A DNA stretch of 64,000 nt from Schmidtea polychroa. Taxonomy: Eukaryota. The stretch spans positions 104,346,001 to 104,410,000 of the forward strand of contig CM097885.1 in NCBI GenBank assembly GCA_044892525.1, given 5' to 3'. This document shows positions 11,380-31,753 of the stretch, in pieces; position 1 is the first letter of the stretch, and each line of letters starts with the position of its first letter. Made by a program: the position numbers and the translations under genes. The notes under the pieces are model-generated. The model was not told the DNA's origin. It saw only the letters and a list, made by a program, of their open reading frames with translations, and did not search any database.

Positions 11380-13000
11380 TAATCTGTAATAACTGTGTCG
11401 AAGGTAATCCTTTTGGACAACTGCCGTTCAATTGAAAGAATTGCTAAATTGGAAAGTCATGATTCACTCATTAAGATCTTATATAGATTTTGATCAGTTT
11501 TAGTTTAGAAAACTTCTTTCACAGCTAGCAAAACACAATGTAAAAAATTCAGAGTGCAATGGCTAAGTTGGACAAAGATTCAATGTATCCCTATTTGACA
11601 ATCCATTGAAGTAGTTAGATAGCTCCCCAGTTGTTAACTTCTGTTGATGTTATTTCTTCATAACTGATCCGACTTCTACGAAGAGATTGAACCTAATTTT
11701 TATGATCTTGTGAAATATGTTCGTTATAAGCCTCACATAGTGTGTCAATTGCTTCATCAATACCCGGGTCATTTGCTGTATTTCTAAAATATTCCACTTG
11801 TGTTAGAAATCTAAATTTAGTATTCATTTCATTAATTTGTCGAAATCTCTGTTCAACTCCGGCATACAATCGGTCAAGGATTTGTTTTTGTTCTCGGTTT
11901 ATTTCTTTTTGCTTCCTCTCCCGGCATTCTTTTTTTTCTCCGCACACATCTTTCAGTAATTTCGAAGAAATTCATTTTTCTGTTGAGCATTTTCAACTAA
12001 ATATTTTCTTTCTTCAACAATAAATTTAAGAAGGGATGCAATGTCAGTTGCACATTTATCTAAACCAAGACCCTTTGTTTGAAGATTTTTTCGAGTTTCA
12101 TTTATTTCTATTACTAAGTGGCTCCAGAAACGCTTTCCAACCCCAGTATGAATTCCATACATTGTCGTATCCTAGACATCTGTAATCTTTCAAATTAAGT
12201 CCATCATTTTTGAGTTTTTCGATTATCTGCTCTCTTTAATTGAAGCAGTTTTACCATCAAAAGGGTAGAAATCTACAAAAAATCTGATCACCACATATCC
12301 TTCACGAATATCGACATAACACAGAACTTGAGACATCTGATCAATATTGGATATCTCAGGCGTGTTAACGAAAATGTTGTAAAATCTTTCGTATTCTTTA
12401 CAGCATCAATAACAGCATATCAGACGCTGCCTCAAAGAAGCAAAGTAAATTCGTTCTTGATGTTAGGTGATAGGTATGATACAGTCTATGTCCCACTCGT
12501 AACTTTTGTGATGTGTTTTCTTAATACAGCATCATATTTCCCCACAAGTTTCATTAATTCAAAAATATTTCCATAATTAATATCAGATTCTTCTGATAAT
12601 TTCTCACGATGTCCTCGAAATGGGAGATGTTATTTGGATAAAAACAAAATCCCATCGAAAATTAGTTTTAAAATATCTCTCAATTTGGCAGCATCCTTAG
12701 TAATTTTCAGTTGAAGTCCACTATCAATCGTTAAGCCTGCTTCAAGGCGTACTGTCATATCTTTCTAACTGTCAAAACCTACCAGGTGAGCTGGGATTGT
12801 TTCATGATGAACCACTTTTGGGATCAGTTTTATTCAAATTGTAAATCCTTCAAAGCTTTTAAATGAACTATGATAAGAATTAAAAAACAACACAATGCAT
12901 TTCGTGAAGAAGAAAACATCATCCATGATAGTAAAATCTTATTATTGTTTGGAATCTTTTTGATAAACCACTTTGTAGTTATTGACCTTGATTCGGGCGT
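11380..13000 (-). pseudogene. hAT (ZMYM1/DUF4371-type) transposase remnant, 3' part
   Basis: Minus strand: KWF...SWMMFSSSRNALCCF (TTF-type Zn finger), LPFRGHRE...NYGNIFELM, SYLSPNIKNEF, and C-terminal dimerisation motif ASCERSF/SKLKLIK...LSNLAILSIER; many stops. Confidence 0.85.
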
Positions 13001-13761
13001 AGTAGGGTATTGTGTGGAGTCGGGAACAAAGACATATGACGTCATCGATGACGTCACAAAGACATATGAGTCATACCTCCGGGGGAGGGGGGTATTTTTA
13101 TTTTTTTAAACAAAGACATATGACTCATCGTGATGACTCATAATGATGACTCATCGTCGTGACTCATCGTCGTGACTCATCGTGATGACTCATCGTGATG
13201 CCTCGTCGTGATGACTCATCGTCGTGATGACTCATCGTGATGACTCATCAATGTCATATTATTATTTTTAAAAAATATTATTATTTTATTTTTAAATATT
13301 TTCAAAGTTCCCGTCAACGAAAATTATTCATCGATAGCTCATTTTAAAGCTCAATCCAAGAACTTTCGAATGAGCTATTGAAGGTATCATCATCATCATT
13401 AATATTGACAAAGTTATTAACAAATCATGACCACCTTATTTTCATAGTGAAATTATTATTCAAAATATTATTAGTGGTCCAGCGGAGTCCTGGTTTTCGT
13501 TTGCCCAAAAGTTGTCGTTCCAATCATTTTATTTCATTGTTCGATAGCTCATTTTAAAGCTTAGTGCAAGACCTTTCGAATGAGCTATTGAAGGTATCAT
13601 CATCATTAATATTGACAAAGTTATTATCGTTTTCCCGAGACCATTTTCAAGGTCATATAATTATTATTAATCTATATACTCCGAGTCTATCCGACAAAAT
13701 ATTCTGTCCCTCTATTGGTACGGTTCGTAAGGGTACTGGTCACGCTCAACAACTCGCAATG

Positions 13762-13847
<86 letters not shown>

Positions 13848-14096
13848 CTATATACTCCGAGTCTATCCGACAAGATATTTTGTCCCCCTATGGGTACTGT
13901 TTACAAAGGTAAAGGTCACAAATGTACTGCTAAAAAATATTCAAGACATTAACAAAGAAATTATACTTTAAATATATTAACACACTGGGTAAAGGTAACT
14001 AACAAAACTTTAACATATTATTATTACACACACACAATGTATAAAAATTGTTCACAAAGTTAAAAAAAATATTCAAGACAATATGACTAATACATT
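13001..14096 (+). repeat. Left TIR of the Polinton
   Basis: Reverse complement of 28035-29088. Differs mainly in ATT-repeat length and in substitutions within the TGACTCA array; contains internal direct repeats. Confidence 0.95.
13037..13247. promoter_or_regulatory. Array of 10 AP-1 (TGA[C/G]TCA) and 2 CRE/ATF (TGACGTCA) sites in the left TIR
   Basis: CRE at 13037 and 13049; AP-1 at 13067, 13121, 13134, 13147, 13160, 13173, 13186, 13212, 13228 and 13241. Function is inferred. Confidence 0.6.
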
Positions 14097-14453
14097 CAAG
14101 GTCATATAATTATTATTAATCTATATACTCCGAGTCTATCCGACAAAATATTCTGTCCCTCTATGGGTACTGTTCGTAAGGGTACTGGTCACGNNNNNNN
14201 NNNNNNNNNNNNNNNNNNNNNNNNNNNNNNNNNNNNNNNNNNNNNNNNNNNNNNNNNNNNNNNNNNNNNNNNNNNNNNNNNNNNNNNNNNNNNNNNNNNN
14301 NNNNNNNNNNNNNNNNNNNNNNNNCATTATACCAATATGAATATTGTTTTCATGGTGTATCAAATCAAAACTCCTATTTTTATAGTCTATCAACCAATCA
14401 AAATCATATGGTAGTAATATAAATAAAGCAGTATATTTTAAATTAATTTAGAA

Positions 14454-14982
14454 ATGTCGCAACCAAATTTTAGTGAAAATGTTCTAAACGGAATTGTCAC
14501 CGCGAATATAGTCGACAGCCTCAATTTCCTGATCAATCGAACTGAAAAAATCATTGAAGGTGAACATATCGATTATCAGCAAATGATGGAGATAGAATCC
14601 CTGGAAACCAAGAAGTTATACTTCAATAGAATATTTCAGTGTCTTTTCGATGAAGACATGAAATGGACAAGGATAATTGTAGGATTCACCTACATGAAGA
14701 TAATCATTGCAAAAGGTCAACATGACTCAGAACATTATTATCAGTGGTCTTTAGAAGTAAGATTTCTTTTATAATCTATATTTTATTAATATTCATTTCT
14801 AGATAATCAAGTCCAAGTTTACCCCATGGATAGAAGCCAATGGCGGATGGGGTGTATTAAATAAACTGGCCTGCAATTTTAAAGAAACTGATGAAATCAA
14901 AAGAAAAATGAAAAACTATATAAAACTTACAACTGGAGTTGTTATAATGTATATTTTCTGTAGATATATGAATAAAAATTAA
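14454..14982 (+). CDS. Bcl-2 family protein encoded by the Polinton (2 exons: 14454-14756, 14803-14982; 160 aa)
   Basis: BH1-like LFDEDMKWTRIIVGFTY; phase-0 46-nt intron GTAAGA...TTTCTAG; exon 2 gives BH2-like FTPWIEANGGW and a C-terminal hydrophobic anchor with basic tail (LTTGVVIMYIFCRYMNKN). Confidence 0.85.
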
Positions 14983-15027
14983 TGTTATTGTTTTTTAATA
15001 GTATATTTAAATGAAAATAATTCAATT

Positions 15028-15368
15028 TTAAAATTTATTAACACATTCGCAATCGTCATCTCCACATTTCATTATATTTTCAACGACATGATCAATACAA
15101 TCATTCGTAATATTATCTTTAGGTTCCTCTATAGGTTCATAGATTTCTTCATCAATTTCTTGAGTTTCTTCATGATTGTCAAATCCTGAATCTTGACTTT
15201 CAACTACCCAGCCGATATTTAAGGCATTTGTAACAGATAATATGTCCTCAATTTTTACACCAGCTATTTCTGCTAATTTTTCCAACAAAAAGTTGATTAA
15301 TAATTCTAAATAATAAATAATTCGGTATTTAATTAATCATGTTAACCTTTTTCTGTAGTCATTTTCAT
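15028..15368 (-). CDS. Small acidic Polinton protein (exons 15368-15347, 15305-15028; 99 aa)
   Basis: MKMTTEK/ELLINFLLEKLAEIAGV... joined by a 41-nt GT-AG intron (15346-15306); acidic middle, Cys-rich C-terminus (CGDDDCEC). Confidence 0.65.
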
Positions 15369-15495
15369 CACTTTAAAGCTATATTTTAAGTTTGTTTATA
15401 GATTTTCTTTGTTAAATTTGCATGTCATTTGCATTAATGTTGCAATTAATAAAGAGAAAAAACAAATATGACTAATACATTTATTAAATATCACA

Positions 15496-15915
15496 TTAAA
15501 ATAGTTGTGAAAGTCTAGCAGACATAATTTTCCAAATTGGAGAATACACATCATTATTATCAACTTTATATCCTTGGATTGCAATTGTTATATACCAATT
15601 TTCGTTTTCTTTGAAGCTGATTTCATCAAAGGAATCATAAAATCTTGCATATCTGTTGTTGAACCAGGCATGTTGATTACAAGATAGATTCGTATTCAAC
15701 CGTTTGAAAACCTCATCAATAGATTTAACATCTATCGTTGAAAGCGTGCCTGATAAGAATTGAAATTGGGTAGGAATTAGCTTGATCGGTGACGCCAATT
15801 TCATATTGATTTCTTCTTTTAAAAAATACATTTTATAGTTGTGGAACATTTGAACAGGTTGTACAAGTTCTGGAACAACTTTTGGCTTTTCAGTGCTTGA
15901 AATTTTCTTTGTCAT
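15496..15915 (-). CDS. Polinton hypothetical protein, 139 aa (possible OB-fold SSB)
   Basis: Clean ATG ORF with AATAAA at the stop and TATA/CCAAT-like sequence upstream. The C-terminal YITIAIQGYKVDNNDVYSPIWKI pattern recalls viral SSBs (weak). Confidence 0.7.
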   Translation of the reverse strand: MTKKISSTEKPKVVPELVQPVQMFHNYKMYFLKEEINMKLASPIKLIPTQFQFLSGTLSTIDVKSIDEVFKRLNTNLSCNQHAWFNNRYARFYDSFDEISFKENENWYITIAIQGYKVDNNDVYSPIWKIMSARLSQLF

Positions 15916-16188
15916 CGTGAATTATGATTAAAATGAAATGGTACGGGGTTTTTATACCTATGACTATTGTTTATCAACCAATCAGATTGCTGTATGTCTT
16001 TGTTTAAATTTGCATGTCTTTGTTTAAATTGCATGTCATTTGCATTAATGTTGCATTAATGTTTTTTATTATAAATATTGTTTTTTATTATTATTTCTAA
16101 TATTATTATTATTATTACTTATATTATTACTATTATTTCTATTTCTATTATTTCGATTTACAAAAACAAAACAATTCAACATAAAAAT

Positions 16189-16595
16189 TTATTTTGATAC
16201 AATCTGACTCGAGTGATGATTTCTCAGAGTCTTCACCAAACACCATTCAACATATTGTTGATAACGGAAATTGCAACAGCTACATCCGAAAATGCAAGGA
16301 ACCTCTGGTTTCATTTCTTTCATCCCCCTTCCTATCTTGATATCCCATAGAAAGGTGTTTATTATATCGAATATCCAGATTCGTGTTTGGTTGTATACCA
16401 AATCCGGAATGATAGCTGGATCTCTATCTTGTAGAATTTCATTTAATTCTGGATAATAGAAGCATAATCTTTGCAGGATAATTGATTGATACTGATCTGT
16501 AAAATATATATTAATGTAATAATAAAAAATTTGAAATTACCATAATTTGCATGCTCTTTCATTGAGGTGATTGCGGAACTTTGTATGTTGTACAT
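16189..16595 (-). CDS. Polinton Cys-containing hypothetical protein (exons 16595-16541, 16496-16189; 120 aa)
   Basis: MYNIQSSAITSMKEHANY/DQYQSIILQRLCFYYPELNE... joined by a 44-nt GT-AG intron (16540-16497) that puts exon 1 in frame with the track ORF; C-terminal CIFGCSCC cluster. Confidence 0.65.
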
Positions 16596-16716
16596 TTTTG
16601 TTGAATAAATGACAACTAAACCGAAAACATTTTGTTATAAATAATCATCAGCCAATTAGATTTCGACCAATCAGAATCATGCATTTCAATTGCATTGAAT
16701 TTGCAATGATAAATAA

Positions 16717-17181
16717 TTAATTAAGTGATAATAAAAAATCTAAAAATTCATTTCCTTCAATTATTGATTTAATTTCAGATATGATATTATCAACTATACA
16801 TTTGTAATCAATATTTTTTATTCCAAGAATTACTATCTTACCGCTAGCGAATATATTTACACACATAGGGTTATATTTTATATATCTCAAAGCTGGAAAT
16901 AATTCTGGTTCGTAAACACATGGTATTAATTTAGCCAATTCATTTAAATTACAAGAAAAACCTATATCGGAAGTTACGGTTATCGATTGTATTTCTAAAT
17001 CATAAACATTATATTCACTAGCTTTGATTATTTCCTTACACCCTATAATTCTACATTTGCCTGTTTTGAAATATATTATTGGATATTTTTTACTTCTATT
17101 GATGAGTTGTTGTGGTTTCCCCATTGGAAATACCATTTTTGATACATCAGCTTTTGCCCTGTAATTTATATTTGAAAGCAT
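16717..17181 (-). CDS. TATA-box-binding-protein (TBP)-like protein encoded by the Polinton, 154 aa
   Basis: Second TBP repeat clear: IQSITVTSDIGFSCNLNEL...YEPELFPALRY...VNIFASGKIVILGIK. First repeat degenerate: IYFKTGKCRIIGCK. Confidence 0.9.
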   Translation of the reverse strand: MLSNINYRAKADVSKMVFPMGKPQQLINRSKKYPIIYFKTGKCRIIGCKEIIKASEYNVYDLEIQSITVTSDIGFSCNLNELAKLIPCVYEPELFPALRYIKYNPMCVNIFASGKIVILGIKNIDYKCIVDNIISEIKSIIEGNEFLDFLLSLN

Positions 17182-17285
17182 TTTAATGAAATAATTATAA
17201 AAACTCTGTTATATATAGTTATTTTAAAAAGGAGTTCATTTAAATTATCAATATAAACAATAATTATATAGTTTAAATTTAAAAA

Positions 17286-17924
17286 ATGGAATTACGAAAT
17301 GATGCAGTATACCAAATCGTTGGTCCGAGTGGTAGTGGAAAAACATTATTTGTTTGTAAATTACTAAAATCAAATTTGTTCAAAACAAAATTCAACAATA
17401 TTTATTGGCATAGGGGCGCCGATGAAGAACATGGATTGACACAATCAAGTTTCTGTCAATTGAAAAACATGAAAATAGTAAAGGGTTTTGATAAAAACTG
17501 GTCAAGTCGTTTGAAGAAAGATGATGTCATCATTATCGATGATTTGTATCAAGAAGCCAATAAAGAAAAGAATTTTAATAATTTATTCACAAAAATCAGC
17601 AGGCATGCTGGTGTAACAGTTATTTTCATAACACAAAATCTATTTCATCAAGGTGGTGCACATCGAACACGTAATTTAAATGTACAATATCTAGTTATTT
17701 TCAAAAATCCTAGAGATGCAACTGTCATTGATTTTCTTGGACGACAAGCATACCCTAATAACCGTAATTTTCTTATCAATGCATTTCAAGATGCTACAAA
17801 AATACCTCATGGGTATATATTTCTCGATTTCACACAACAATGTCCTGATGATATACGGGTAAAAACAGATATTTTCAACCCAAAAGGTGCCATGGTTTAT
17901 AAACAAAGTTCAAAACAAATTTGA
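17286..17924 (+). CDS. A32/FtsK-like genome packaging ATPase
   Basis: Walker A GPSGSGKT, Walker B IIIDD, ISRH...IFITQNLF...RTRNLNVQYLVIFKNPRD typical of the Polinton ATPase. Confidence 0.95.
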   Translation: MELRNDAVYQIVGPSGSGKTLFVCKLLKSNLFKTKFNNIYWHRGADEEHGLTQSSFCQLKNMKIVKGFDKNWSSRLKKDDVIIIDDLYQEANKEKNFNNLFTKISRHAGVTVIFITQNLFHQGGAHRTRNLNVQYLVIFKNPRDATVIDFLGRQAYPNNRNFLINAFQDATKIPHGYIFLDFTQQCPDDIRVKTDIFNPKGAMVYKQSSKQI

Positions 17925-17937
17925 AAACACATAAATC

Positions 17938-18432
17938 ATGTTTTCAAAAACAAGGATATCGAGTAAAAAACAACCAAAAGTTCCACCAACAACTAGTTAT
18001 ACTCCATCTAAAGAACTTATTACAGAAAATTTTCCTGCAATGAATCTTATTTCGAAAAATCCTAAACCTAAACCTAAAAGTAAAACCACTAAGAAAGTAA
18101 AAGTTGTTAAAAATCATCGGAGTTTCCCGCTTTTCAATACATTGTTAAAGGCACCCAGTATGAAAAGAAACAGTATTTTGCAATCTTTTCCAAATTATGT
18201 TGTCGATGATTTACTCAATATTATACTTAAAGTAGTCAAAGGCAAGATTAAAATCAGTAAATCTAAAAACCAATTATTGAGTAAACATAGGAAACCATTG
18301 TTATCTTTAGTAAATAATAAAAATCGTCAACAAATGAGAAAAATTATATATAAACAACAAGGGGGATTTATCGGTGCATTGATACCTTTAGCAATATCAT
18401 TATTAGGTGGAATAATAGGAAGTCGATCATAA
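17938..18432 (+). CDS. Basic core protein with adenovirus pX(mu)-like C-terminus
   Basis: Very Lys-rich 164 aa ending QQGGFIGALIPLAISLLGGIIGS, resembling the GG-cleavage site plus amphipathic tail of adenoviral pX. Confidence 0.7.
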   Translation: MFSKTRISSKKQPKVPPTTSYTPSKELITENFPAMNLISKNPKPKPKSKTTKKVKVVKNHRSFPLFNTLLKAPSMKRNSILQSFPNYVVDDLLNIILKVVKGKIKISKSKNQLLSKHRKPLLSLVNNKNRQQMRKIIYKQQGGFIGALIPLAISLLGGIIGSRS

Positions 18433-18493
18433 ACAATGGGTGCTAATCCTTCATTACCAGACATTAAATTTAATTTTAAATCTTCTTGTTGTA

Positions 18494-19675
18494 ATGGAGA
18501 AGATTTGGACGAACCCAGAAGACGAAGCCGGTTTCGGTGGAGTGGCAAAATTAAACAAAAGAGTTCCGAATTCGAAAAAGGAAACCCAGAAGTGGTTATC
18601 AGACCAGCTTGCGTACAGTTTGAACAAACCAATGCAGAAACGATTCCCAACAAGAGTATATAAAACATATGGAATAAATGATTTATGGCAAATGGATTTG
18701 ATGGAGATGATACCTTATTCGAAAATTAACAATGAGAATAAATATATTTTAACATGTATTGATGTATTCAATCGGTTTGCCCGAGCAATACCCGTCAAGG
18801 CAAAATCTGCAGATGAAATGTCTAAAGCAATTAATATTTTATTTAAAGATGGGCATCCTAATANNNNNNNNNNNNNNNNNNNNNNNNNNNNNNNNNNNNN
18901 NNNNNNNNNNNNNNNNNNNNNNNNNNNNNNNNNNNNNNNNNNNNNNNNNNNNNNNNNNNNNNNNNNNNNNNNNNNNNNNNNNNNNNNNNNNNNNNNNNNN
19001 NNNNNNNNNNNNNNNNNNNNNNNNNNNNNNNNNNNNNNNNNNNNNNNNNNNNNNNNNNNNNNNNACAGTAAAGTCAAGCAAATCCTCAATAAATTAAAAA
19101 TAAACCATTACTCGGTACATTCTCAATACAAAGCTGCTCATGTTGAAAGATTTAACAGAACATTGAGAGATAGATTAAAGAAATTATTCGTGCATCAAGG
19201 TAATAAAAAATGGGTAAATGCTTTACCGAAAATAATAACAAGTTATAATCATTCATCACATCGAGGACTGGATGGATTGAGACCGGTTGATATTACATCA
19301 AAAACACCAGTATCTAAGAAATCTGTAAAAATTGCAAAACCTAAATATAAAGTCGGTGACCATGTTAGAATTAGTAAAATTAGTGCATCACCATTTATTA
19401 AAAATTTCGATACAAATTGGAGTGACGAAGTCTTTGTAATTTCAAAAATAAATACTAGCCAGAGTCCTGTAATGTATGTCATCAAAGACAATGATAATAA
19501 TATTGTACAAGGGAAATTTTATGAGCAGGAATTACAAGTCATTCCTCCTCCAAAAGTATTTAGAATTCAAAAGATATTGAAAACTAAAAAGGTCGGCAAG
19601 GATAAACAATACTATGTCAAATGGCATGGTTATCAAAACCCGTCATGGATATCAGAAAAGGATCTACTAAAGTGA
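18494..19675 (+). CDS. Retroviral-type (rve) integrase with C-terminal chromodomain
   Basis: WQMDLMEM, LTCIDVFNRFA, HVERFNRTLR, YNHSSHRGL, KVGDHVRI, chromodomain IQKILKTK...YYVKWHGY..PSWI. The second catalytic Asp falls in the N-gap 18864-19064. Confidence 0.93.
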   Translation: MEKIWTNPEDEAGFGGVAKLNKRVPNSKKETQKWLSDQLAYSLNKPMQKRFPTRVYKTYGINDLWQMDLMEMIPYSKINNENKYILTCIDVFNRFARAIPVKAKSADEMSKAINILFKDGHPNXXXXXXXXXXXXXXXXXXXXXXXXXXXXXXXXXXXXXXXXXXXXXXXXXXXXXXXXXXXXXXXXXXXXSKVKQILNKLKINHYSVHSQYKAAHVERFNRTLRDRLKKLFVHQGNKKWVNALPKIITSYNHSSHRGLDGLRPVDITSKTPVSKKSVKIAKPKYKVGDHVRISKISASPFIKNFDTNWSDEVFVISKINTSQSPVMYVIKDNDNNIVQGKFYEQELQVIPPPKVFRIQKILKTKKVGKDKQYYVKWHGYQNPSWISEKDLLK

Positions 19676-20687
19676 ATTTTTATACTATTTTACCGAGCAA
19701 TAGTTGCCCATTAATTCATCCAGACAATCAAGCCAGTAAATTTATGGTCAATCTCCAGAATCCGATTTCTTTAAATGGTGACTGGGAAGTTGCACTGCAA
19801 GATTTTACATTCGTGTACAACACATTCCCATTTTATAGTCAATGTAAGATTGATTTCAAAAGGAATATTGTGAAAACATGTAGCGGTATCTTTATTATCA
19901 GTAATTATGATAAAACATATCGTATTCCGAATCAAATATTAGATTCACATTGCTATATGTTTTACAAGGATGGATTAAATATCAGTTGTGATTTTAAACC
20001 ATTTACAATAACATTCGAATATATTGAAGATGCCAAACGAATGGGTTGCAGTAAGTTGAAAAATATTGTTACGGAGACCGAGTATTTATTACGTTTTAAT
20101 CTATTTGAAGCAAACAGTGTAATGAAAGAAGAAATCAAAATATCTGTATCGTATAATGATGAAGTTGAAGAATCATTTACCTTTGCTGATGAATTATATT
20201 TTGATAAACTTGATGATTTACTTAAATATTTAAAGTTCAATTGTTCACACATATTTAAAAATTTGGAAATTGTGAAAGATTTGATGTTTACCTTCAGTTT
20301 GAATGATGATATTTGTGAAGTTACATTTGAAAAAATTTGGCAAATTCGCTTGGATTAGATAAGCAAAAATATCGAGAAAAATCGACTGGTATACGCAAAC
20401 CAAGAATACTAGAACATCATCAACAAATGTTCATATATATAAATATTATCGAACCCATAATTGTTGGTGATTCCAGTGTTCCTCTATTGAAATCGGTATG
20501 GATTGGAAAATATGAACATGATGAAGTTGTCAATATAAATATAGATAATCCCATGTATTTACCAATAGCAAGTTCATGTATAAACAATATAGAAATAAAT
20601 ATTCGTGATGATAGTGGAAAACTTATAAACTTTCCAAAAGACTCAAAAACTCATTTGACACTACATTTTCGTAAAGTAGATGGCTAA
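19645..20687 (+). pseudogene. Minor capsid protein (penton), frameshifted near 20330-20340
   Basis: N-terminal FYTILPSNS..HPDNQASKF.V.L...I.L.GDWEVAL; C-terminal MFIYINIIEPIIVGDSSVPLL...LHFRK. Adding one A to the A6 run joins the two ORFs (FEKNLANSLGL). Confidence 0.85.
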
Positions 20688-21042
20688 TTCCGATATTATT
20701 AGTATGTATAGTGATAGCCAATCTGGCGGTGAATTACCATATTTTATTGGTAAACAGTACGGATCAGGTTGGTTAAAAACAATAGGGAGATTTGCACTTC
20801 CTATTCTTAAACGTATTGGTAGTTTTGGCATGAAAACTGCTAAAGACGTGATTATGAATGAACAGAAAATATTACCATCCCTAAAAACAAATGCTTTAGC
20901 TGAGTTAGGGAAGGTTCTACCTGGAGTTGCTGGTATGTTTCAAAAAGATACGCCTCCAGCCCCAGCTCAAAAACGTAAAAGACATGGAATATCGCGTATA
21001 AACAAACGAATGAAAGGACATGGAACTATATTTGCAAAATGA
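20680..21042 (+). CDS. Small virion protein with QxGG/QxGxG motifs and amphipathic helix (pVI/core-like)
   Basis: SQSGGELPYFIGKQYGSGWLKTIGRFALPILKRIG, basic C-terminus; lies just upstream of the major capsid gene. Confidence 0.75.
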   Translation: MANSDIISMYSDSQSGGELPYFIGKQYGSGWLKTIGRFALPILKRIGSFGMKTAKDVIMNEQKILPSLKTNALAELGKVLPGVAGMFQKDTPPAPAQKRKRHGISRINKRMKGHGTIFAK

Positions 21043-22223
21043 TTTGTGGTAAATCCGAATTATGTATATTTGATAGACCATCGCCTCAAGCTGTAATAGA
21101 ATTTGGTGCATTTGAGGAAGTTTTTCCTATGAATTCAATTACTGATAGTAGAAATGATATCGAGTTTTATATTAATGGTTCGCAAACTGAATATTTAGAT
21201 TTGAACGATACTTTATTGACTGTTCAGATCAAGGTTGTAGATAAAGAAAGAAAAGTTTTGGATGCCAATGCAGATGTAATACCGAACAATTTCATGTTTC
21301 ATACTCTGTTTAAAGATGCAGTGTTGGGATTTAATAATATCAAGATTGAAGGCATTAATAGAAACTATTTTAAATTACAATTCTGATACTAAAAATACAT
21401 GTCTTACACCTATGGGTTATGGCAGTGATGATGAAAGAAAAAAGTGGGTTAAAGGCTCAAAGGTTTTCACCATGTGCTCATCATTACAACTTGATTTTAT
21501 GGATCAACCGAAATATTTACTACCGGGAGTTAATGTACACATTAGACTGAAAAGGTTCGATTCTGCATTATCTCTTACTAGTGCAACTGGTGCACCAATA
21601 TGCCAATTAGTTGATGCAAAATTATTGGTGAGAAGAGTTCGAGTAGACCCGTCAGTATTAGCTGGTCATCAATTGGGGCTTAATTCAAAACATGCAATTT
21701 ATCCTTTAAAAACAAAGGAAATTGTACAATTTGCTATTGCTAAAGGTGCTTCATCATTCTATAAAGAACAAATATTTGGTGACAGAAGAATGCCTAATTT
21801 TATTCTGGTAACATTTCAAAGTGAAACGCAATATAATGGATCTTCCAGCTCAATTTTCAAAATTTTGGTGTTACTTCATTGACTTTGTCGAAAAATACTG
21901 ATTATAGAGAAACATATACTCAAGATTTCGAAAGCGATAATTACTGTGCGACATATATGCAGAGTATTGTTAGAAATCTGGGTTACTTAGATAAAAACTT
22001 GAATTGTGGAATAACTCTAGAAGATTTTAAAAGCAAATACCCATTTTTCACATTTGTTTTAGCCCCTGATTTTGATTTAAATCAGAGTCAACTACCTCAA
22101 AATGGAAATTTACGACTGGATATTAAGTTTGCAAGAGCCATTACTGAACCGGTACATGTTATAATATATGGAGTATTTGAAAATGAAGTTCAAATTACTG
22201 CAAATAGAACCGTGCTAGTATAA
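21039..22223 (+). pseudogene. Major capsid protein (double jelly-roll), broken into three ORFs
   Basis: KSELCIFDRPSPQAVIE...IEFYINGSQTEYLDLNDT; ALIETILNY; LQLDFMDQPKYLLPGVNVHIRL; RMPNFILVTF; GNLRLDIKFA. Frame breaks near 21350 and 21850. Confidence 0.9.
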
Positions 22224-22635
22224 ATGTATACAGAAACACAAAACGTTGTCATGGAGTAAGTTTTTTGATACTGTTTAATTTTATTAAAGTAGTTCTGTTC
22301 AGGTTAATCGAATTGGAAAACAGATATTAGGAAATGAATTTATAGGTGTTTTTCCTCTTGATAAAATTCCTTATTTGAGCAATAATCAAGCTATAATCGT
22401 CAATACTCATTCATCTCATCTTGGTGGAGAACATTGGATAGCTATATATGTGAAACCTAGTAATATATTCGTATTCGATCCTATGGGTTTCTATTATCCT
22501 TCTTTGTTGATATCAAAACTTCAAACAATTGGGAAACCTATTGTATATAATAAAACTATGTTTCAAAATCCATTGACTCAAACATGTGGTCAACACTGTT
22601 TGGCATGGTTGTTGTATACAAAATTTGATGGTTAA
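22224..22635 (+). CDS. Adenain-like cysteine protease, spliced (exon 1 22224/22251-22255, exon 2 22293-22635)
   Basis: Removing the 37-nt intron GTAAG...GTAG gives MDSVQVNRIGKQILGNEFIGVFPLDKIP. Catalytic GEHW, FDPMG and QTCGQHC are present. Confidence 0.88.
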
Positions 22636-23072
22636 TAAATGTATACTGTATGATTTTTATTTGTTGACTATTTTAATTATTTGTTAAATATTATTATTAT
22701 TATTAATATTATTATTATTAATATTATTAATATTATTATTATTTTGAAAAAATATTATTATTTTAATTAATTTTATTATTCAAATAAATATTATTAATTC
22801 TACATAAAGACTACCTATGCCTGAAGCATGCACAGTGCAAGTTAACAAAGGCATGACTAACAAAGGCAGTCACATGTAATTTTTGAGTGATTTACATGTA
22901 TGCGTGTGATTGGTTGAGAGAGTAAAATATTCAGTGTATATGTGTGTGTCTATATTCTCATTGGCTGGGACAGGAAAATATTCATTCTCTTTATAAACAT
23001 CGACAAATCTAAAATTTGTCACAATTATTTTAAAATTTTAAAAATCTATTAATAATAATAATATTTAACAAC

Positions 23073-23337
23073 ATGAACAACAACAATATTCAAAGAGTTG
23101 ACGGAAAGATCGTTGGAGGAATTAATGGTAAATTTATTATTTTATTATTTTATTATTTTTAATATGATTATTAGGTACTAATCAACAAATGAATATCGAC
23201 GGACAAGCTGTAGACATGAATAGAATAAATGGTAATAGTTTACTATTATAATCATTATTATTTTATTATGCTTTTAGATGGAATAAATACTTCTGCTGGT
23301 TCTGATGCTGGAAAATTTCTTTCGAAAGGACGAAAAT
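23073..23337 (+). CDS. Micro-exon gene inside the Polinton (23073-23127, 23175-23231, 23278-23337, then an open donor)
   Basis: Three phase-1 exons of 55, 57 and 60 nt separated by 47- and 46-nt GT-AG introns read MNNNNIQRVDGKIVGGINGTNQQMNIDGQAVDMNRINDGINTSAGSDAGKFLSKGRK. GTAAGT donor at 23338; next exon not identified. Confidence 0.65.
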
Positions 23338-23380
23338 GTAAGTATTTATTTATTGTTATAAGTTTTTAAGTTTTTTAAAC

Positions 23381-23461
<81 letters not shown>

Positions 23462-23477
23462 TAAAAGAAGATTATAA

Positions 23478-23720
23478 AGAAACTTATGAAAAGAAGATAT
23501 TTTAAAAGAAGATTTATTTATGATGATTTTGAAAGGAATATTTATGAAAAGAAGATTTATTCATGAAAAGAAGATTTATTTATGATGATTTTGAAAAGAA
23601 GATTCATGAAAAGAAGATTTATTTATGATGATGATTTTGAAAAGAAGATTTATTCATGAAAAGAAGATTTATTTATGATGATTTTGAAAAGATGATTTAT
23701 TAAATATGATGATTTTGAAT
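23478..23720. repeat. Degenerate tandem repeat (gaaaagaagatttatt/tatgatgatttt units)
   Basis: About 8 imperfect copies upstream of PolB. Confidence 0.8.
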
Positions 23721-23981
23721 ATTATAATTAATAACTTTTATATATTATTTATGAAAATAAAATCTATTTTAGAAAATGAATTATTTATTTATGAAAATGA
23801 ATTAAATTATTTATGAAAACGAATTAAATTATATATTTTATAATAATTTTTATAGTATTTTTTTATAAGATACTATTTAAAAGACAATTTTGAATAATAT
23901 CTTACGAAAAATATCTTAAACTTTAAAAATGATTATCTTAATATTTTTTAAACATTTTATGATAAAAATATTTTCATTGGT

Positions 23982-26900
23982 TTGAAATACCAAAACTTTT
24001 GTAATAGTCAATATCATAATGACGGCGATGATATAATGGAAAGATATTATAGTCATAAATATAACGGTGTCACCTACATTCTATGCCCTAAATGTGAGGT
24101 TATTGAAGTTATAACGTATAAGGAATTTTATAATAAGCATAGACTCCATCTCCAACAATTTAAACCTTCTAAGAAGTCTCTTTTCTATAGCTTATATGAA
24201 TCGTTTGTTAACAATAATAATAATAATAATAATAATAATATCACCAGCAACAATAATATCAACAATAATGATAATAATATCACCAGCAACAATAATATCA
24301 ACAATAATGATAATAATAATATCACCAACAATAATACTAACAACACCAATAATAATGATATAAACGAAATAACTGAACTAAAAGATCAAGTAAATAAATT
24401 AAATGATCAAATAAATAATCTAATTAATATGAATAAAAGAAAAAATAATGAAAAAATAAATTCAATACCAAGTAAAAAATCTAAAGTTATTGATGTAATT
24501 ACAATAAGTGATGATGAAATAATCAACATAAGTGATGATGAAATTGATAATAATAGTAGTAGTAATATTTATTATAATAATGGTATTAATAATAATATTA
24601 ATCAAATAGGTTATGGTGTCGTAGATGTCACCAGTGATTTAAATAATAATCATATTATATTAAAAATGGACGTTTCGTCTTTAGATTTAAAAACGGTCTC
24701 TGTACCAGACATTTTAATAAATAAATTAAAATTATATGTAAATAAATTAAAATCATGTAAAATTCAATTTTGTCTAAAGGTGGAATTTATAAAAGATGAT
24801 GAGTTACAATCTTTTGTAATCTCGAATTCCGCCCGAGTTTGGAGCGATACATTCATTGACGAAGGTATTGCTCGTTTAAATGAAAAAATAATTAAAATTA
24901 ATGAGAAAGGTAGTAATTGGACTATCAATAAAATAGAATACATAAGCTTTGTTCTTACTAAATTTGCTGAAATAAGTCGGTTAAGTGGTAGAAGTTTTAT
25001 TGAAACCCCAAAATCTTTAAGAAACTTAAGCTGTCTCGTTAATGTAGTTAATAATGACCACTTCTGTTTTTTGTATAGTTTCTTGTCAATTATTAAATAT
25101 GATAGTATAAATAGGCAATATAGAAATCGCCCTAATTCATACAATCTTTCTGAAATTAAATTTGATCCTAATGATATGCCGATGAAACTATCAAATATAA
25201 GTAAATTTGAACAACAAAATCCAGGTTATAGTATAAATGTTCTTACTTATAACGAAAAGGCTTTGATTGACATTTCCGATGAAGATGCAGTTATGAAACA
25301 TCCCTTTATTGATATAATATACAGGAGTAAGATAGTAGGAGCCATACCTATCAATTTATTATTAATTGAAAAGAATGATAATTATCATTATCTTGGAATC
25401 ATAGACCTAAATAGATTCCTTAATTGTAGGAATAGTTCAATCACTCCTGTTAGGATTTGTAGTCAATGGTGCCCTAGATGTTTAAACGGTTTTAGGAATG
25501 ATGACGCTTTTAATAGACATAAGGGTCTTTACGATAAAAATCAGCTTGGTACTACCTTGTACACATTGCCTAAAAATAAATATTTAGAATTTACTGATTG
25601 GAGTAAAACAGTCACTCCTCCCTTTGTTATTTACGCTGACTTTGAGGCTATCTTACCTAAAGACACTCGCTACTTTCAACGTCATCTGCCTATTTCTGCC
25701 GGTATGCTTTTTATTAATAATTTCTCGGGCGTAAAGATTTATAAGTCGTTCACCGGTTTAGATTGTGTCGATCAATTTCTTACTGAAATTGAAATGATAG
25801 GGAAATATATTGTAACTCCTTATTATTATAAAAATTATCAAAAGAAAATGATAATTACAGATGAGCAGGAATTAATGTTTGAAAACAGCACATCATGCTA
25901 TTTGTGCAATAAGCCTTTAGTTAGTCCAGTTAGGGACTATGATCATTTTACCGGTTTATATCTCGGTGCCGCTTGTACAACTTGTAATCTGTCGAGGCAA
26001 ATTAGACATACCCTTCCTGTAGTATTTCATAATTTAAAGGGTTATGATCTGCATCATATCTTGAAATTTGGCCTTTCAAAATATCATTCATGGAATATTA
26101 GTTGTATTCCTTTAACCAGCGAGAAATTCCTTAGTCTTTTTGCTAGGATTGACTCATTAACTGTTAAATTTATAGACTCTTATCAATTTGTCAGCGAGTC
26201 TTTAAATAATGCTGTCAAAACTTTATCATCTTTACCCTTGACCGAATCAGAATTTCAGGGTACAATAATAACTGCAAAAGGAATTATTCCTTATGATGCC
26301 GCAACTTCATTAGAGGTTTTGCATAACACTCATCAGTTACCTCCTATTTGGAAAGATGTGACTCCCGCTGAATATGAGACAGCTCAGAGAATTTGGCTTG
26401 AAACTTCATGTACTTCACTTTTTGATTACACGATGGTTTATTTAAAACTTGATGTTTTCCTTTTAGCCGATTTTTTCCAGCAATTTAGAGCTAAGTCCAT
26501 TGCTCATAACCGACTAGAGCCATTAAATTTCTTAGGGATTCCAGGTATGTCTTGGAATTCAGCCTTATTAACTTTAAACTCTCCAATTGAGCTCCTCACC
26601 GATATGGAGATGTATAACTTTTTCGAGGGCGGTATCCGTGGCGGACTAACTTTTGTAAATAAACATTATGTAAAAACAGACCCGGATACCGCTTTGCTTT
26701 ACATAGATATAAATAATTTATACGGTTGGGCTTTAAGTCAACCATTACCTTGCAGTGACTTTGAATGGGTTACTGATGATAATTTATTAAATAATATAAT
26801 TGTTGAATGCACAACGGTAGATTTAGATCTGCTTGATTATGGTTATACCATAGAAGTGGATTTAGAAATACCGACGTCAATTCACGACAAACTGGACGAT

Positions 26901-28014
26901 CTTCCCGTTGCCGCTGAAAAGATGTGTGTACCGGGTTCGAAAATAGAGAAGCTGTTGCTTACACACAGCCCCAAGAGGAACTACGTTCTTCATTGGAGGC
27001 TTCTACAAATATTTATTAAATTAGGTGTTAAAATATTAAAAACACATAGAGCAATAATTTAAACAAGATAAAATTTTCAAAAATTATATTAACACAAATA
27101 CGGCGTTACGAGCAGCGTCGACAAATAAACTTTATAAATTATTAAACAACAGTCTTTACGGCAAGACTGTTGAAAATCTTAAAAAACGTATTAATTTACG
27201 TCTGTGTAATTCTTCACAGAGATTATTAACATTCTGTTCGAAACCGACTTTTCGTAAATCCACGAAAATCGATGATGACTTGATTTCGGTTTTATTGAGG
27301 AAGGACATAGTGTGTTTGAATAGACCTAGTTACATTGGTCAAGCCGTACTTGATTTATCCAAACTTCGCATGTACCAGCTGCAGTATGAAGAGTTGCAAA
27401 AATATCGCGACGAATTCAACTGCGAAATTAATATCGTTGCTGGAGACACAGATTCCTTCTTCTTGGAAATTAAACATTGTAGTCTTGACATTCTTTTACC
27501 TGCGATGATTAGAGATCAATTATTAGATACTTCGAATTATGACCCAAATCATCCTTTATATAGTAGGAACCTTGATTCTGTTATTGGTAAATTCAAAGAC
27601 GAGAATAAAGGGTTATTATATAAAGATTGGGTGTTCTTGAGACCTAAATGTTACAGTTTGATGGGTGATGAGGAAAGTATGAAGGCTAAGGGGATAAGTA
27701 TGAAAGATACTGGACTAACACCCCAGTCGTATCTAGATTGCTATTTAAATGATAAAATATACACAGTCCCTCAGTTTAGAATAACGTCAAAAAATCACCA
27801 ACTTTTTAGTATTAAAAATAATAAAAGAGCCTTGACATGTAGAGATGATAAGCGAAATTGGGTGGATAAAAATCAAAGTTTGGCATATGGCCATTATAGG
27901 GGCGGTGACACCGTTATATTTATAGATTCAACGGAAGCTATCTCAACAGATGATACAGATGATTTCCATGATCCAGCATATGATAATTATTTTGGACATG
28001 ATTATTTTCGATGA
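23982..28014 (+). pseudogene. Protein-primed family B DNA polymerase, frameshifted at ~27057
   Basis: Exo motifs VIYADFE, FHNLKGYD, YLKLDV; Pol motifs LYIDINNLYGWA, KLLNNSLYGK, GDTDS; endonuclease-VII-like Zn domain CYLC...DYDHFTG...ACTTCN. ORF 23982-27062 continues in another frame that is open from 27058 to 28014. Confidence 0.95.
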
Positions 28015-28034
28015 TGTGTTTAAATTATTTAATA

Positions 28035-28283
28035 AATGTATTAGTCATATTGTCTTGAATATTTTTTTTAACTTTGTGAACAATTTTTATACATTGTGTG
28101 TGTGTAATAATAATATGTTAAAGTTTTGTTAGTTACCTTTACCCAGTGTGTTAATATATTTAAAGTATAATTTCTTTGTTAATGTCTTGAATATTTTTTA
28201 GCAGTACATTTGTGACCTTTACCTTTGTGAACAGTACCCATAGGGGGACAAAATATCTTGTCGGATAGACTCGGAGTATATAG

Positions 28284-28327
<44 letters not shown>

Positions 28328-29088
28328 CATTGCGAGTTGTTGAGCGTGACCAGTACCCTTACGAACCGTACCAATAGAGGGACAGAATATTTTGTCGGAT
28401 AGACTCGGAGTATATAGATTAATAATAATTATATGACCTTGAAAATGGTCTCGGGAAAACGATAATAACTTTGTCAATATTAATGATGATGATACCTTCA
28501 ATAGCTCATTCGAAAGGTCTTGCACTAAGCTTTAAAATGAGCTATCGAACAATGAAATAAAATGATTGGAACGACAACTTTTGGGCAAACGAAAACCAGG
28601 ACTCCGCTGGACCACTAATAATATTTTGAATAATAATTTCACTATGAAAATAAGGTGGTCATGATTTGTTAATAACTTTGTCAATATTAATGATGATGAT
28701 GATACCTTCAATAGCTCATTCGAAAGTTCTTGGATTGAGCTTTAAAATGAGCTATCGATGAATAATTTTCGTTGACGGGAACTTTGAAAATATTTAAAAA
28801 TAAAATAATAATATTTTTTAAAAATAATAATATGACATTGATGAGTCATCACGATGAGTCATCACGACGATGAGTCATCACGATGAATCACCACGATGAG
28901 TCACTGCGATGGGTCATCACAATGGGTCACGACGATGAGTCATCATGATGAGTCATCACGATGAGTCATATGTCTTTGTTTAAAAAATAAAAATACCCCC
29001 TCCCCCCGGGGGGTATGACTCATATGTCTTTGTGACGCCATCGATGACGTCATATGTCTTTGTTCCCGACTCCACACAATACCCTACT
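28035..29088 (-). repeat. Right TIR of the Polinton
   Basis: Inverted copy of 13001-14096. Confidence 0.95.
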
Positions 29089-29094
29089 GGGCGT

Positions 29095-31045: not shown

Positions 31046-31753
31046 ATGTCAGACGAAGAAGATTATATGTCAGATGCTATTCTCTTGAAATTATGTGAAC
31101 CTAATTTAACTAAAAAGCAGTCTATTAAGAAAATTCCTGAATACACTCCTCCAATTAAAATTAAAAAACTTGAACAGATTAATAGAACTGAAGGCTTAGA
31201 AAAAAAAATTTCCTCCGACAATAAAGGGTATGCTATTCTTTTAAAAATGGGATATAAACCAGGTAAAGGATTAGGCAAAGACGAATCAGGAAGAGTAGAT
31301 CCTGTCCCCATTGATTTTAAAAATAATAAAGTCGGATTAGGTGAAAAAACTGTTTTAAATGATAAAATTGAATTTAAAAAAGCAATGTACGAAGATATTA
31401 AAATAAATTATAGGATTAATATGAGCAAACAATATGAAGAGAAGAATTTCACAAATAATTTAAATAAAATTCAAAGAATTTGCAGGGATTTAGACATGGA
31501 AAGGGATTTACAAGTTCCACTTAAAGATTGGTATTGGCCAAATTACAAAGAAAAGAAATCTAATTATGATGTTGACATTGAAGAATATTTCGAACTAGAA
31601 AGTTGTGATCTTTCAGATGAAGAAAAATTATTATATATTTATGAATATCTCAGAAAAATGTTTTTCTATTGTTTTTGGTGTGGAAGTTGTTTTTCGAATG
31701 AATCAGAATTGTCAGAAAGCTGCCCGGGATTTCTAAAAGAAGATCATGAATGA
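31046..31753 (+). CDS. GPATCH11: G patch domain-containing protein 11 (CCDC75), single exon, 235 aa
   Basis: MSDEEDYMSD N-terminus, G-patch NKGYAILLKMGYKPGKGLGKDESG...VGLG, C-terminal YLRKMFFYCFWCG...CPG...EDH (DUF4187). Confidence 0.9.
   Translation: MSDEEDYMSDAILLKLCEPNLTKKQSIKKIPEYTPPIKIKKLEQINRTEGLEKKISSDNKGYAILLKMGYKPGKGLGKDESGRVDPVPIDFKNNKVGLGEKTVLNDKIEFKKAMYEDIKINYRINMSKQYEEKNFTNNLNKIQRICRDLDMERDLQVPLKDWYWPNYKEKKSNYDVDIEEYFELESCDLSDEEKLLYIYEYLRKMFFYCFWCGSCFSNESELSESCPGFLKEDHE

Follow-up and report, generated by a model that had tools for sequence, protein, structure and literature searches.

The window analysed here, a 64,000-nt stretch of Schmidtea polychroa DNA, contains a mobile element of 16.1 kb at positions 13001-29088, which has AGT..ACT ends and lies between two copies of a 6-bp target-site duplication, GGGCGT (12995-13000 on the left and, with the same six bases, 29089-29094 on the right). 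Comparison of the inverted arms delimits a left terminal inverted repeat (13001-14096) that is 97-100% complementary to the right one (28035-29088). Between these repeats, the forward strand encodes a packaging ATPase (17286-17924; PF04665 Pox_A32, E 3.5e-07, above cut-off), an integrase with a chromodomain (18494-19675; PF00665 E 3.1e-05 and PF00385 E 2.2e-04, below cut-off on partial sequence), a capsid-gene region (19621-22223), an adenovirus-like protease (22288-22635; PF00770 E 1.3e-06, above cut-off) and a protein-primed family B polymerase, which is split over two frames in this copy (24036-28014; PF03175 E 5.7e-05, below cut-off on partial sequence). The capsid region had no family match in the profile search and holds conserved frames in the expected place, its minor and major capsid labels being drawn from the layout. 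The association of an A32-like ATPase with an integrase, a protease and a family B polymerase, together with the ends and the duplication, makes this element a Polinton/Maverick. This copy carries frameshifts in the capsid region (19621-22223) and in the polymerase (27058), though its repeats are 97-100% matched and its Bcl-2-like gene is open. Short leader exons are predicted from sequence upstream of the polymerase (23073-23340, forward strand), separated by putative GT-AG introns of 47 nt (23128-23174) and 46 nt (23232-23277).

Four further genes of the element lie on the reverse strand. Orphan cargo gene A (15028-15362) has two exons and a 41-nt phase-1 GT-AG intron (15346-15306) that measures 41-44 nt across 11 distinct forms; a record of run X2 joins 15347 to 15299, with 6 letters matching a sister subfamily. 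It is followed by a 139-aa cargo gene (15496-15915) that is common to the intronless family, by orphan cargo gene B (16189-16595) and by a TBP-like gene (16717-17181; PF00352 E 5.4e-15). Cargo gene B is predicted to consist of two exons around a 44-nt phase-1 GT-AG intron (16540-16497), based on the sequence and on TA-expanded variants from other copies; the run contigs contained no spliced record of it. The TBP of the window is only about 55% identical to that of the elements at L150 and L154, whose Bcl-2 genes are 89-94% identical to the window's, which points to a mosaic cassette. At several other loci (L073-L075, L178-L179, L189-L190) elements have been rearranged, inverted duplications having formed around either the polymerase or the cargo cassette. 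The terminal repeats contain 13-bp tandem units (13107-13253 and 28841-28977) with the word TGACTCA, which we take to be AP-1-like, and a host G-patch/DUF4187 gene (31046-31753, forward strand) lies 2 kb to the right of the insertion.

Counted from the left inverted repeat, the first gene of the element is a Bcl-2-like gene on the forward strand, read from the sequence as running from the ATG at 14454 to the stop at 14982 and encoding 160 aa overall. Its exon 1 (14454-14756, 101 aa) encodes helices 1-6, including the BH1-like segment LFDEDMKWTRII (14643-14678, with the Thr codon at 14667-14669). After a 46-nt phase-0 GT-AG intron (14757-14802), exon 2 (14803-14982, 59 aa) provides the BH2 segment WIEANGGW (14827-14850), which fits the W-x4-GGW motif, and a predicted tail anchor at about 14917-14961. 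The sequence-only reading had described this gene as an intron-containing Bcl-2 homologue carried by a Polinton and had named the junction 14756/14803 as the place where splicing should be visible. Both points are borne out: the coordinates are exact, inverted arms and target duplication enclose the gene, and the joint 14756>14803, which skips 46 nt with GT..AG ends, occurs in a single contig of run X1 (depth 46, shorter side 30 letters) and in a single contig of run X2 (depth 18.2, shorter side 39 letters). X1 and X2 belong to a single study and are probable RNA by guess, the letters between the contig sides not being known; among the runs listed as holding the gene, none is on record as RNA. 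The joint is not listed for X3, X4 and X5, all of which cover the place deeply, and the gene is not covered in run X7. Of 25 GT..AG pairs around the end of exon 1, only 3 yield an open frame of at least 40 codons, all three with the donor at 14757, and among their acceptors the RNA joint uses 14802. The acceptor with the start of exon 2 has 587 exact matches in the genome (control, 0) and an intronless join of exon 1 to exon 2 has none, so the joint is not explained by a closely related copy that lost these bases at the DNA level. With GT-AG ends, removal in probable RNA contigs and a freely varying length, the 46-nt insertion shows the features of a spliceosomal intron, and its splicing is confirmed.

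The Polinton that carries this gene is present in hundreds of copies in the genome. An intron was called at the same codon boundary, between the same protein flanks, in 56 of 160 loci examined by a scan that demanded GT and AG and missed about 12 damaged loci of the intron clade. Intron length in these 56 loci ranges from 30 to 98 nt and falls in all three length classes modulo 3, and the intron is common to Polinton clades with only 30-41% protein identity. Exon 1 is open in 149 of the 150 scored copies and both exons in 29 of the 30 closest. Subfamilies compared pairwise have dN/dS values of 0.06-0.19 in 25 of 28 cases, with dS often near saturation (the other 3 pairs are near-identical), and exon 2 alone gives pN/pS values of 0.20-0.44 in all five pairs. 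Both exons are under purifying selection while the length of the intron varies. Protein searches yielded relatives of two kinds only, the unspliced gene calls on DNA P0001-P0003 and the host-like P0004 and P0006; a further hit, P0005, is a cysteine-rich mollusc protein matched by chance. Among viral contigs, 28 pattern matches contained no confirmed relative of the gene, and the metagenome scan returned, among the matches listed, only the 1,405-nt contig of P0006 itself.

The window protein is a member of the Bcl-2 family. On its own, exon 1 hits PF00452 with E 0.0044 and 18 bits, under the curated cut-off of 31.4; sister copies with an in-frame intron reach 32-34.5 bits in the genome scan, the intronless relative L054 reaches 32.7 bits, above the cut-off, and the host paralogue 46.3 bits. 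Exon 1 also matches A1/Bfl-1 (E 0.028) and lies near Bcl-2 clusters in the Atlas (0.92), where its neighbours include the Poxv_Bcl-2-like and Adeno_E1B_19K clusters. A structural comparison with Bcl-xL had been proposed, and structure prediction gives a Bcl-2 bundle, its helices packed about a central hydrophobic helix 5, for the intronless relative but not for exon 1 of the window gene. The L054 model (pTM 0.71) matches Bcl-xL with E 4.7e-04, probability 1.0 and a TM score of about 0.6, whereas the exon-1 model has six helices at a poor pTM of 0.43; nearly all its PDB matches are Bcl-2 family members, none of them significant (best E 0.86), and none of 18 matches to viral structures holds at E 0.001. 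A Bcl-2 fold is thus predicted for the window protein by way of L054. Removal of the intron adds WIEANGGW, as the sequence-only reading had noticed, and the tail anchor that it had placed behind this segment is retained as a prediction, being only weakly hydrophobic (19-residue mean 0.9 at best, 15-residue mean 1.64, with basic flanks; the 19-residue value of P0004 is 1.8).

The closest host gene of the Polinton Bcl-2 is the single-copy paralogue L042 (G000:C1:268544056), which is found once at 100% identity (next match 48%), adjoins a peptidase-like gene and has no Polinton parts around it. It emerged from a genome-wide scan in which 150 of 909 Bcl-2 candidates were scored, comprising host paralogues, many Polinton copies and a retroelement domain; relatives from other sources are P0004 and P0006. 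All six Polinton representatives score 145-233 against L042, P0004 and P0006, and none exceeds 97 against the retroelement domain or any of five further host loci, these host loci being cut at BH2 in that scoring, which lowers their scores somewhat. Like the window protein, the members of this trio have a BH1 without Gly, a short helix 5-6 region, a BH2 and an alignable tail, and L042 also shares the W-x10-PW spacing with it. The two proteins are nevertheless only about 25% identical, and L042 differs in being single copy and in having a more hydrophobic tail. They differ also in their introns. L042 has an intron of 2,972 nt directly after the GGW of BH2, with exon 2 found beyond it, and the intron of the window gene lies 13 codons before the end of BH2. 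A GT after GGW occurs in 5 of 6 matched host loci versus 0 of 7 matched Polinton loci, and conversely eight host loci show no break where the Polinton gene has its intron. The window tail can be aligned to exon 2 of the host with no gap inside the alignment, and shuffled sequences score as high in 3 of 2000 cases; for the sister copy L060 the figure is 0 of 2000.

These observations bear on the proposal that the intron reflects either capture from host DNA or later gain. Capture of a gene with its intron is disfavoured and gain is likely, since the host intron is absent and the intron sites differ. The simplest reading of the missing host intron, the ungapped tail and the new intron site is that the host paralogue was likely captured through RNA and acquired an intron inside the element afterwards; the GT-AG introns of 41-47 nt in the neighbouring cargo genes A and B and in the polymerase leader provide a context for such a gain. 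Phylogeny, which had been suggested together with the comparison of intron positions, keeps the trio together as a starred clade and places the Polinton genes beside it with weak support (65/87), from which capture likely predates the split between the hosts of L042, P0004 and P0006. A single capture is neither rejected nor demonstrated (p-AU 0.336). Both trees omit damaged or redundant rows (L133, L148, L149, L163, L087, L159), and the second also omits L052, L156, L039, L041, L154 and L151. The retroelement domain was rejected as donor because of its low score, its place inside the Polinton clade being a long-branch join (58/56).

In other Polinton families (L053-L058, L064, L067-L069, L102, L103), the corresponding slot is occupied by a Bcl-2 gene without an intron. 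Where the intron would lie, this gene is shorter by one residue, and its tail does not resemble that of the host; one such subfamily has WGK at BH1. An ancestral intron-free state represented by these families is not supported by the polymerase tree or by their unrelated tail. In that tree, which has a distant outgroup and is built from mosaic elements, the intronless families nest with an intron-bearing family (95/93), and their tail has no match to host exon 2 (1180 of 2000 shuffles score as high). The intronless genes represent either intron loss or a second capture. Among the host loci, L031-L037 (G000:C4:89.9-90.8 Mb) are seven near-identical Bcl-2 copies in a segmental repeat, with a canonical NWGR and no donor after GGW.

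The window protein is predicted to act like viral Bcl-2 proteins, and yet it departs from the xxGR signature of typical pro-survival members: its BH1 reads KWTR, in which the Arg is kept and the Gly replaced. The replacement of Gly by Thr had been noticed before and compared with divergent viral Bcl-2 proteins. The substitution is present, but it is not a viral novelty, as the donor-like host gene and its relatives have Ser at this position (WSR, WSQ and WSR in L042, P0004 and P0006), so that the Thr of the window continues a host trait. Across the Polinton clades the motif occurs as WTR, WSR, WSK and WGK. Mutation of the BH1 glycine is reported to abolish the pro-survival activity of Bcl-2 and of KSHV Bcl-2 (PMC2836074), and its absence here therefore counts against the holding of BH3 helices; on the other side, NWGR is replaced by LGVR in variola F1L (PMC9609553), so that a changed BH1 need not end the role of the family. 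In complex prediction, the two exon products together with a host BH3-like stretch (three chains) score 0.51 versus 0.02 for the best control, with 78% of contacts agreeing between runs and a partner pLDDT of about 61. Of 78 solved pairs, 5 passed at this level, as did every one of the 4 mismatches, out of 180, that passed; scores of this kind are often wrong, and the present one may reflect likeness to solved complexes. The models thus lend weak support to binding of BH3 helices by the window protein.

Bcl-2 and IAP homologues have been reported in adintoviruses, i.e., animal Polintons/Mavericks (Starrett et al., 2021; PMC8502044), with Bcl2 labels on beta-class maps in the text layer of Supplementary Figure S2. 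These share with the window gene the position of a Bcl-2-like accessory gene in a Polinton; compared by description, the accessible text of that source has no intron, donor or splicing for it and no planarian name. Cargo genes with introns (wasp, krma) are known from nematode Mavericks (Widen et al., bioRxiv 2022.07.12.499685), where, as here, they lie by the left inverted repeat and the core genes are intronless. According to the parts of that preprint consulted, this cargo consists of proteases and kinases and its introns are read as host-derived, whereas the window gene lacks the host intron and bears one at a new site. Introners occur in dinoflagellate Polinton-like elements (PMC12166617), and intact vertebrate Mavericks are described as having no introns (PMC8097293). 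The portions available of PMC11071296 and PMC10748475 contain nothing on a spliced Polinton Bcl-2 gene, and no description of a spliced Bcl-2 in a planarian Polinton was found in the open literature searched. Bcl-2 genes in Polintons and intron-bearing Maverick cargo are therefore known, and the intron history seen here appears not to have been reported. The viral proteins EBV BHRF1, poxvirus F1L, adenovirus E1B-19K and ASFV A179L have a Bcl-2 fold and a short N-terminus like the window protein; they are tested apoptosis inhibitors, whereas the window protein is a prediction, lacks the BH1 Gly and is spliced.

On balance, the most probable interpretation is that this is a spliced Polinton Bcl-2 that was captured through RNA, gained its intron inside the element and acts as a predicted mitochondrial BH3-binder promoting survival. 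RNA of a host Bcl-2 paralogue would have been copied into the Polinton, with the short intron gained later. The spliced protein is predicted to anchor in the mitochondrial membrane by its tail and to hold the BH3 helices of host Bax/Bak-like death proteins, which would delay death in cells where the element replicates or integrates. Retention of BH2 and of the BH1 Arg is consistent with such a viral-Bcl-2-like action. As the element is integrated and transcribed in the nucleus, a host-type short intron would cost it little and may aid expression. A not very probable alternative accepts the Bcl-2 fold with an altered groove that does not hold BH3 and would copy the job of the divergent host paralogue in membrane, autophagy or innate signalling functions. 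Several poxviral Bcl-2 folds serve such other roles. Absence of the BH1 glycine throughout the donor-like subfamily, a helix 5-6 region 5 residues shorter than in other host paralogues, Lys or Gln for the BH1 Arg in some members and the weak BH3 complex score all fit this alternative; it is opposed by the retention of Arg and BH2 under purifying selection in the window clade and by the LGVR of variola F1L (PMC9609553).

The other alternatives concern the origin of the intron, the direction of the effect and the reality of splicing. An inherited intron, obtained by genomic capture of an ancient host gene interrupted here but not after BH2, is unlikely. Inheritance agrees with the age of the intron in the elements, where it is present in clades of 30-41% protein identity and on both sides of the polymerase tree, and with the host-derived, intron-bearing cargo proposed for nematode Mavericks (bioRxiv 2022.07.12.499685). 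It requires, however, two independent later changes in the host; the eight host loci are continuous at the site, five of six have the donor after BH2, and other genes of the element, including the polymerase leader, hold 41-47-nt introns of their own. That the protein is instead a pro-death (Bax/Bak-like) factor, releasing particles or removing competing cells, is suggested by its best solved-structure profile matches, which are to Bak (E 1.1e-04). These matches are confined to BH1, the sequence of helix 2 shows no evident BH3-like motif, the full model of L054 matches Bcl-xL best and hundreds of open killer copies would be costly in the germ line, which makes this reading distinctly unlikely. 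Finally, it is highly improbable that the 46 bases are a gene-breaking insertion or are mostly retained, with a 106-aa product that lacks BH2 and tail. X1 holds intron-containing contigs beside its spliced one and P0001-P0003 have the unspliced form, but the latter are gene calls on DNA, the GT-AG joint is exact in two runs, and length varies freely with a conserved exon 2.

On the favoured reading, an RNA-captured Bcl-2 with an intron gained in the element, a single genome displays the donor, the host intron that was lost and the one that is new, and offers a compact case for the study of intron gain with hundreds of copies of varying intron length. Bcl-2 cargo had previously only been labelled on maps (PMC8502044). 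The gene also draws attention to a host Bcl-2 paralogue that lacks the BH1 glycine. Planarian Polintons are reported to be repressed by PIWI and de-silenced in differentiation and upon PIWI loss (PMC8532177), which makes the pro-survival idea testable by RNAi. A more far-reaching version, tentative and rather doubtful, would see this Polinton lineage as an intron-gaining, spliceosome-dependent element that captured a glycine-less host Bcl-2 through RNA, took introns into it, into two cargo genes and into the polymerase leader, and carried a working death-blocker to hundreds of loci, enough to shift the apoptosis threshold of host cells where Polintons are de-repressed.

The genome contains a second, unrelated Bcl-2 domain in frames of up to about 3,000 codons, present in many copies (L052, L156-L162, L164). 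Planarian Burro elements, giant LTR retrotransposons, are described as having a BCL2-like domain (review PMC6431247) and are thus, like the Polinton, mobile elements with a Bcl-2 domain in a planarian genome; as far as the review's description goes, theirs is part of a polyprotein and has no intron. The retroelement domain, to which the Burro label is applied following that description, is distant (score 61 versus 170 for the host paralogue) and is a separate capture, so that this genome has two giant mobile elements, unrelated to each other, each with a Bcl-2.
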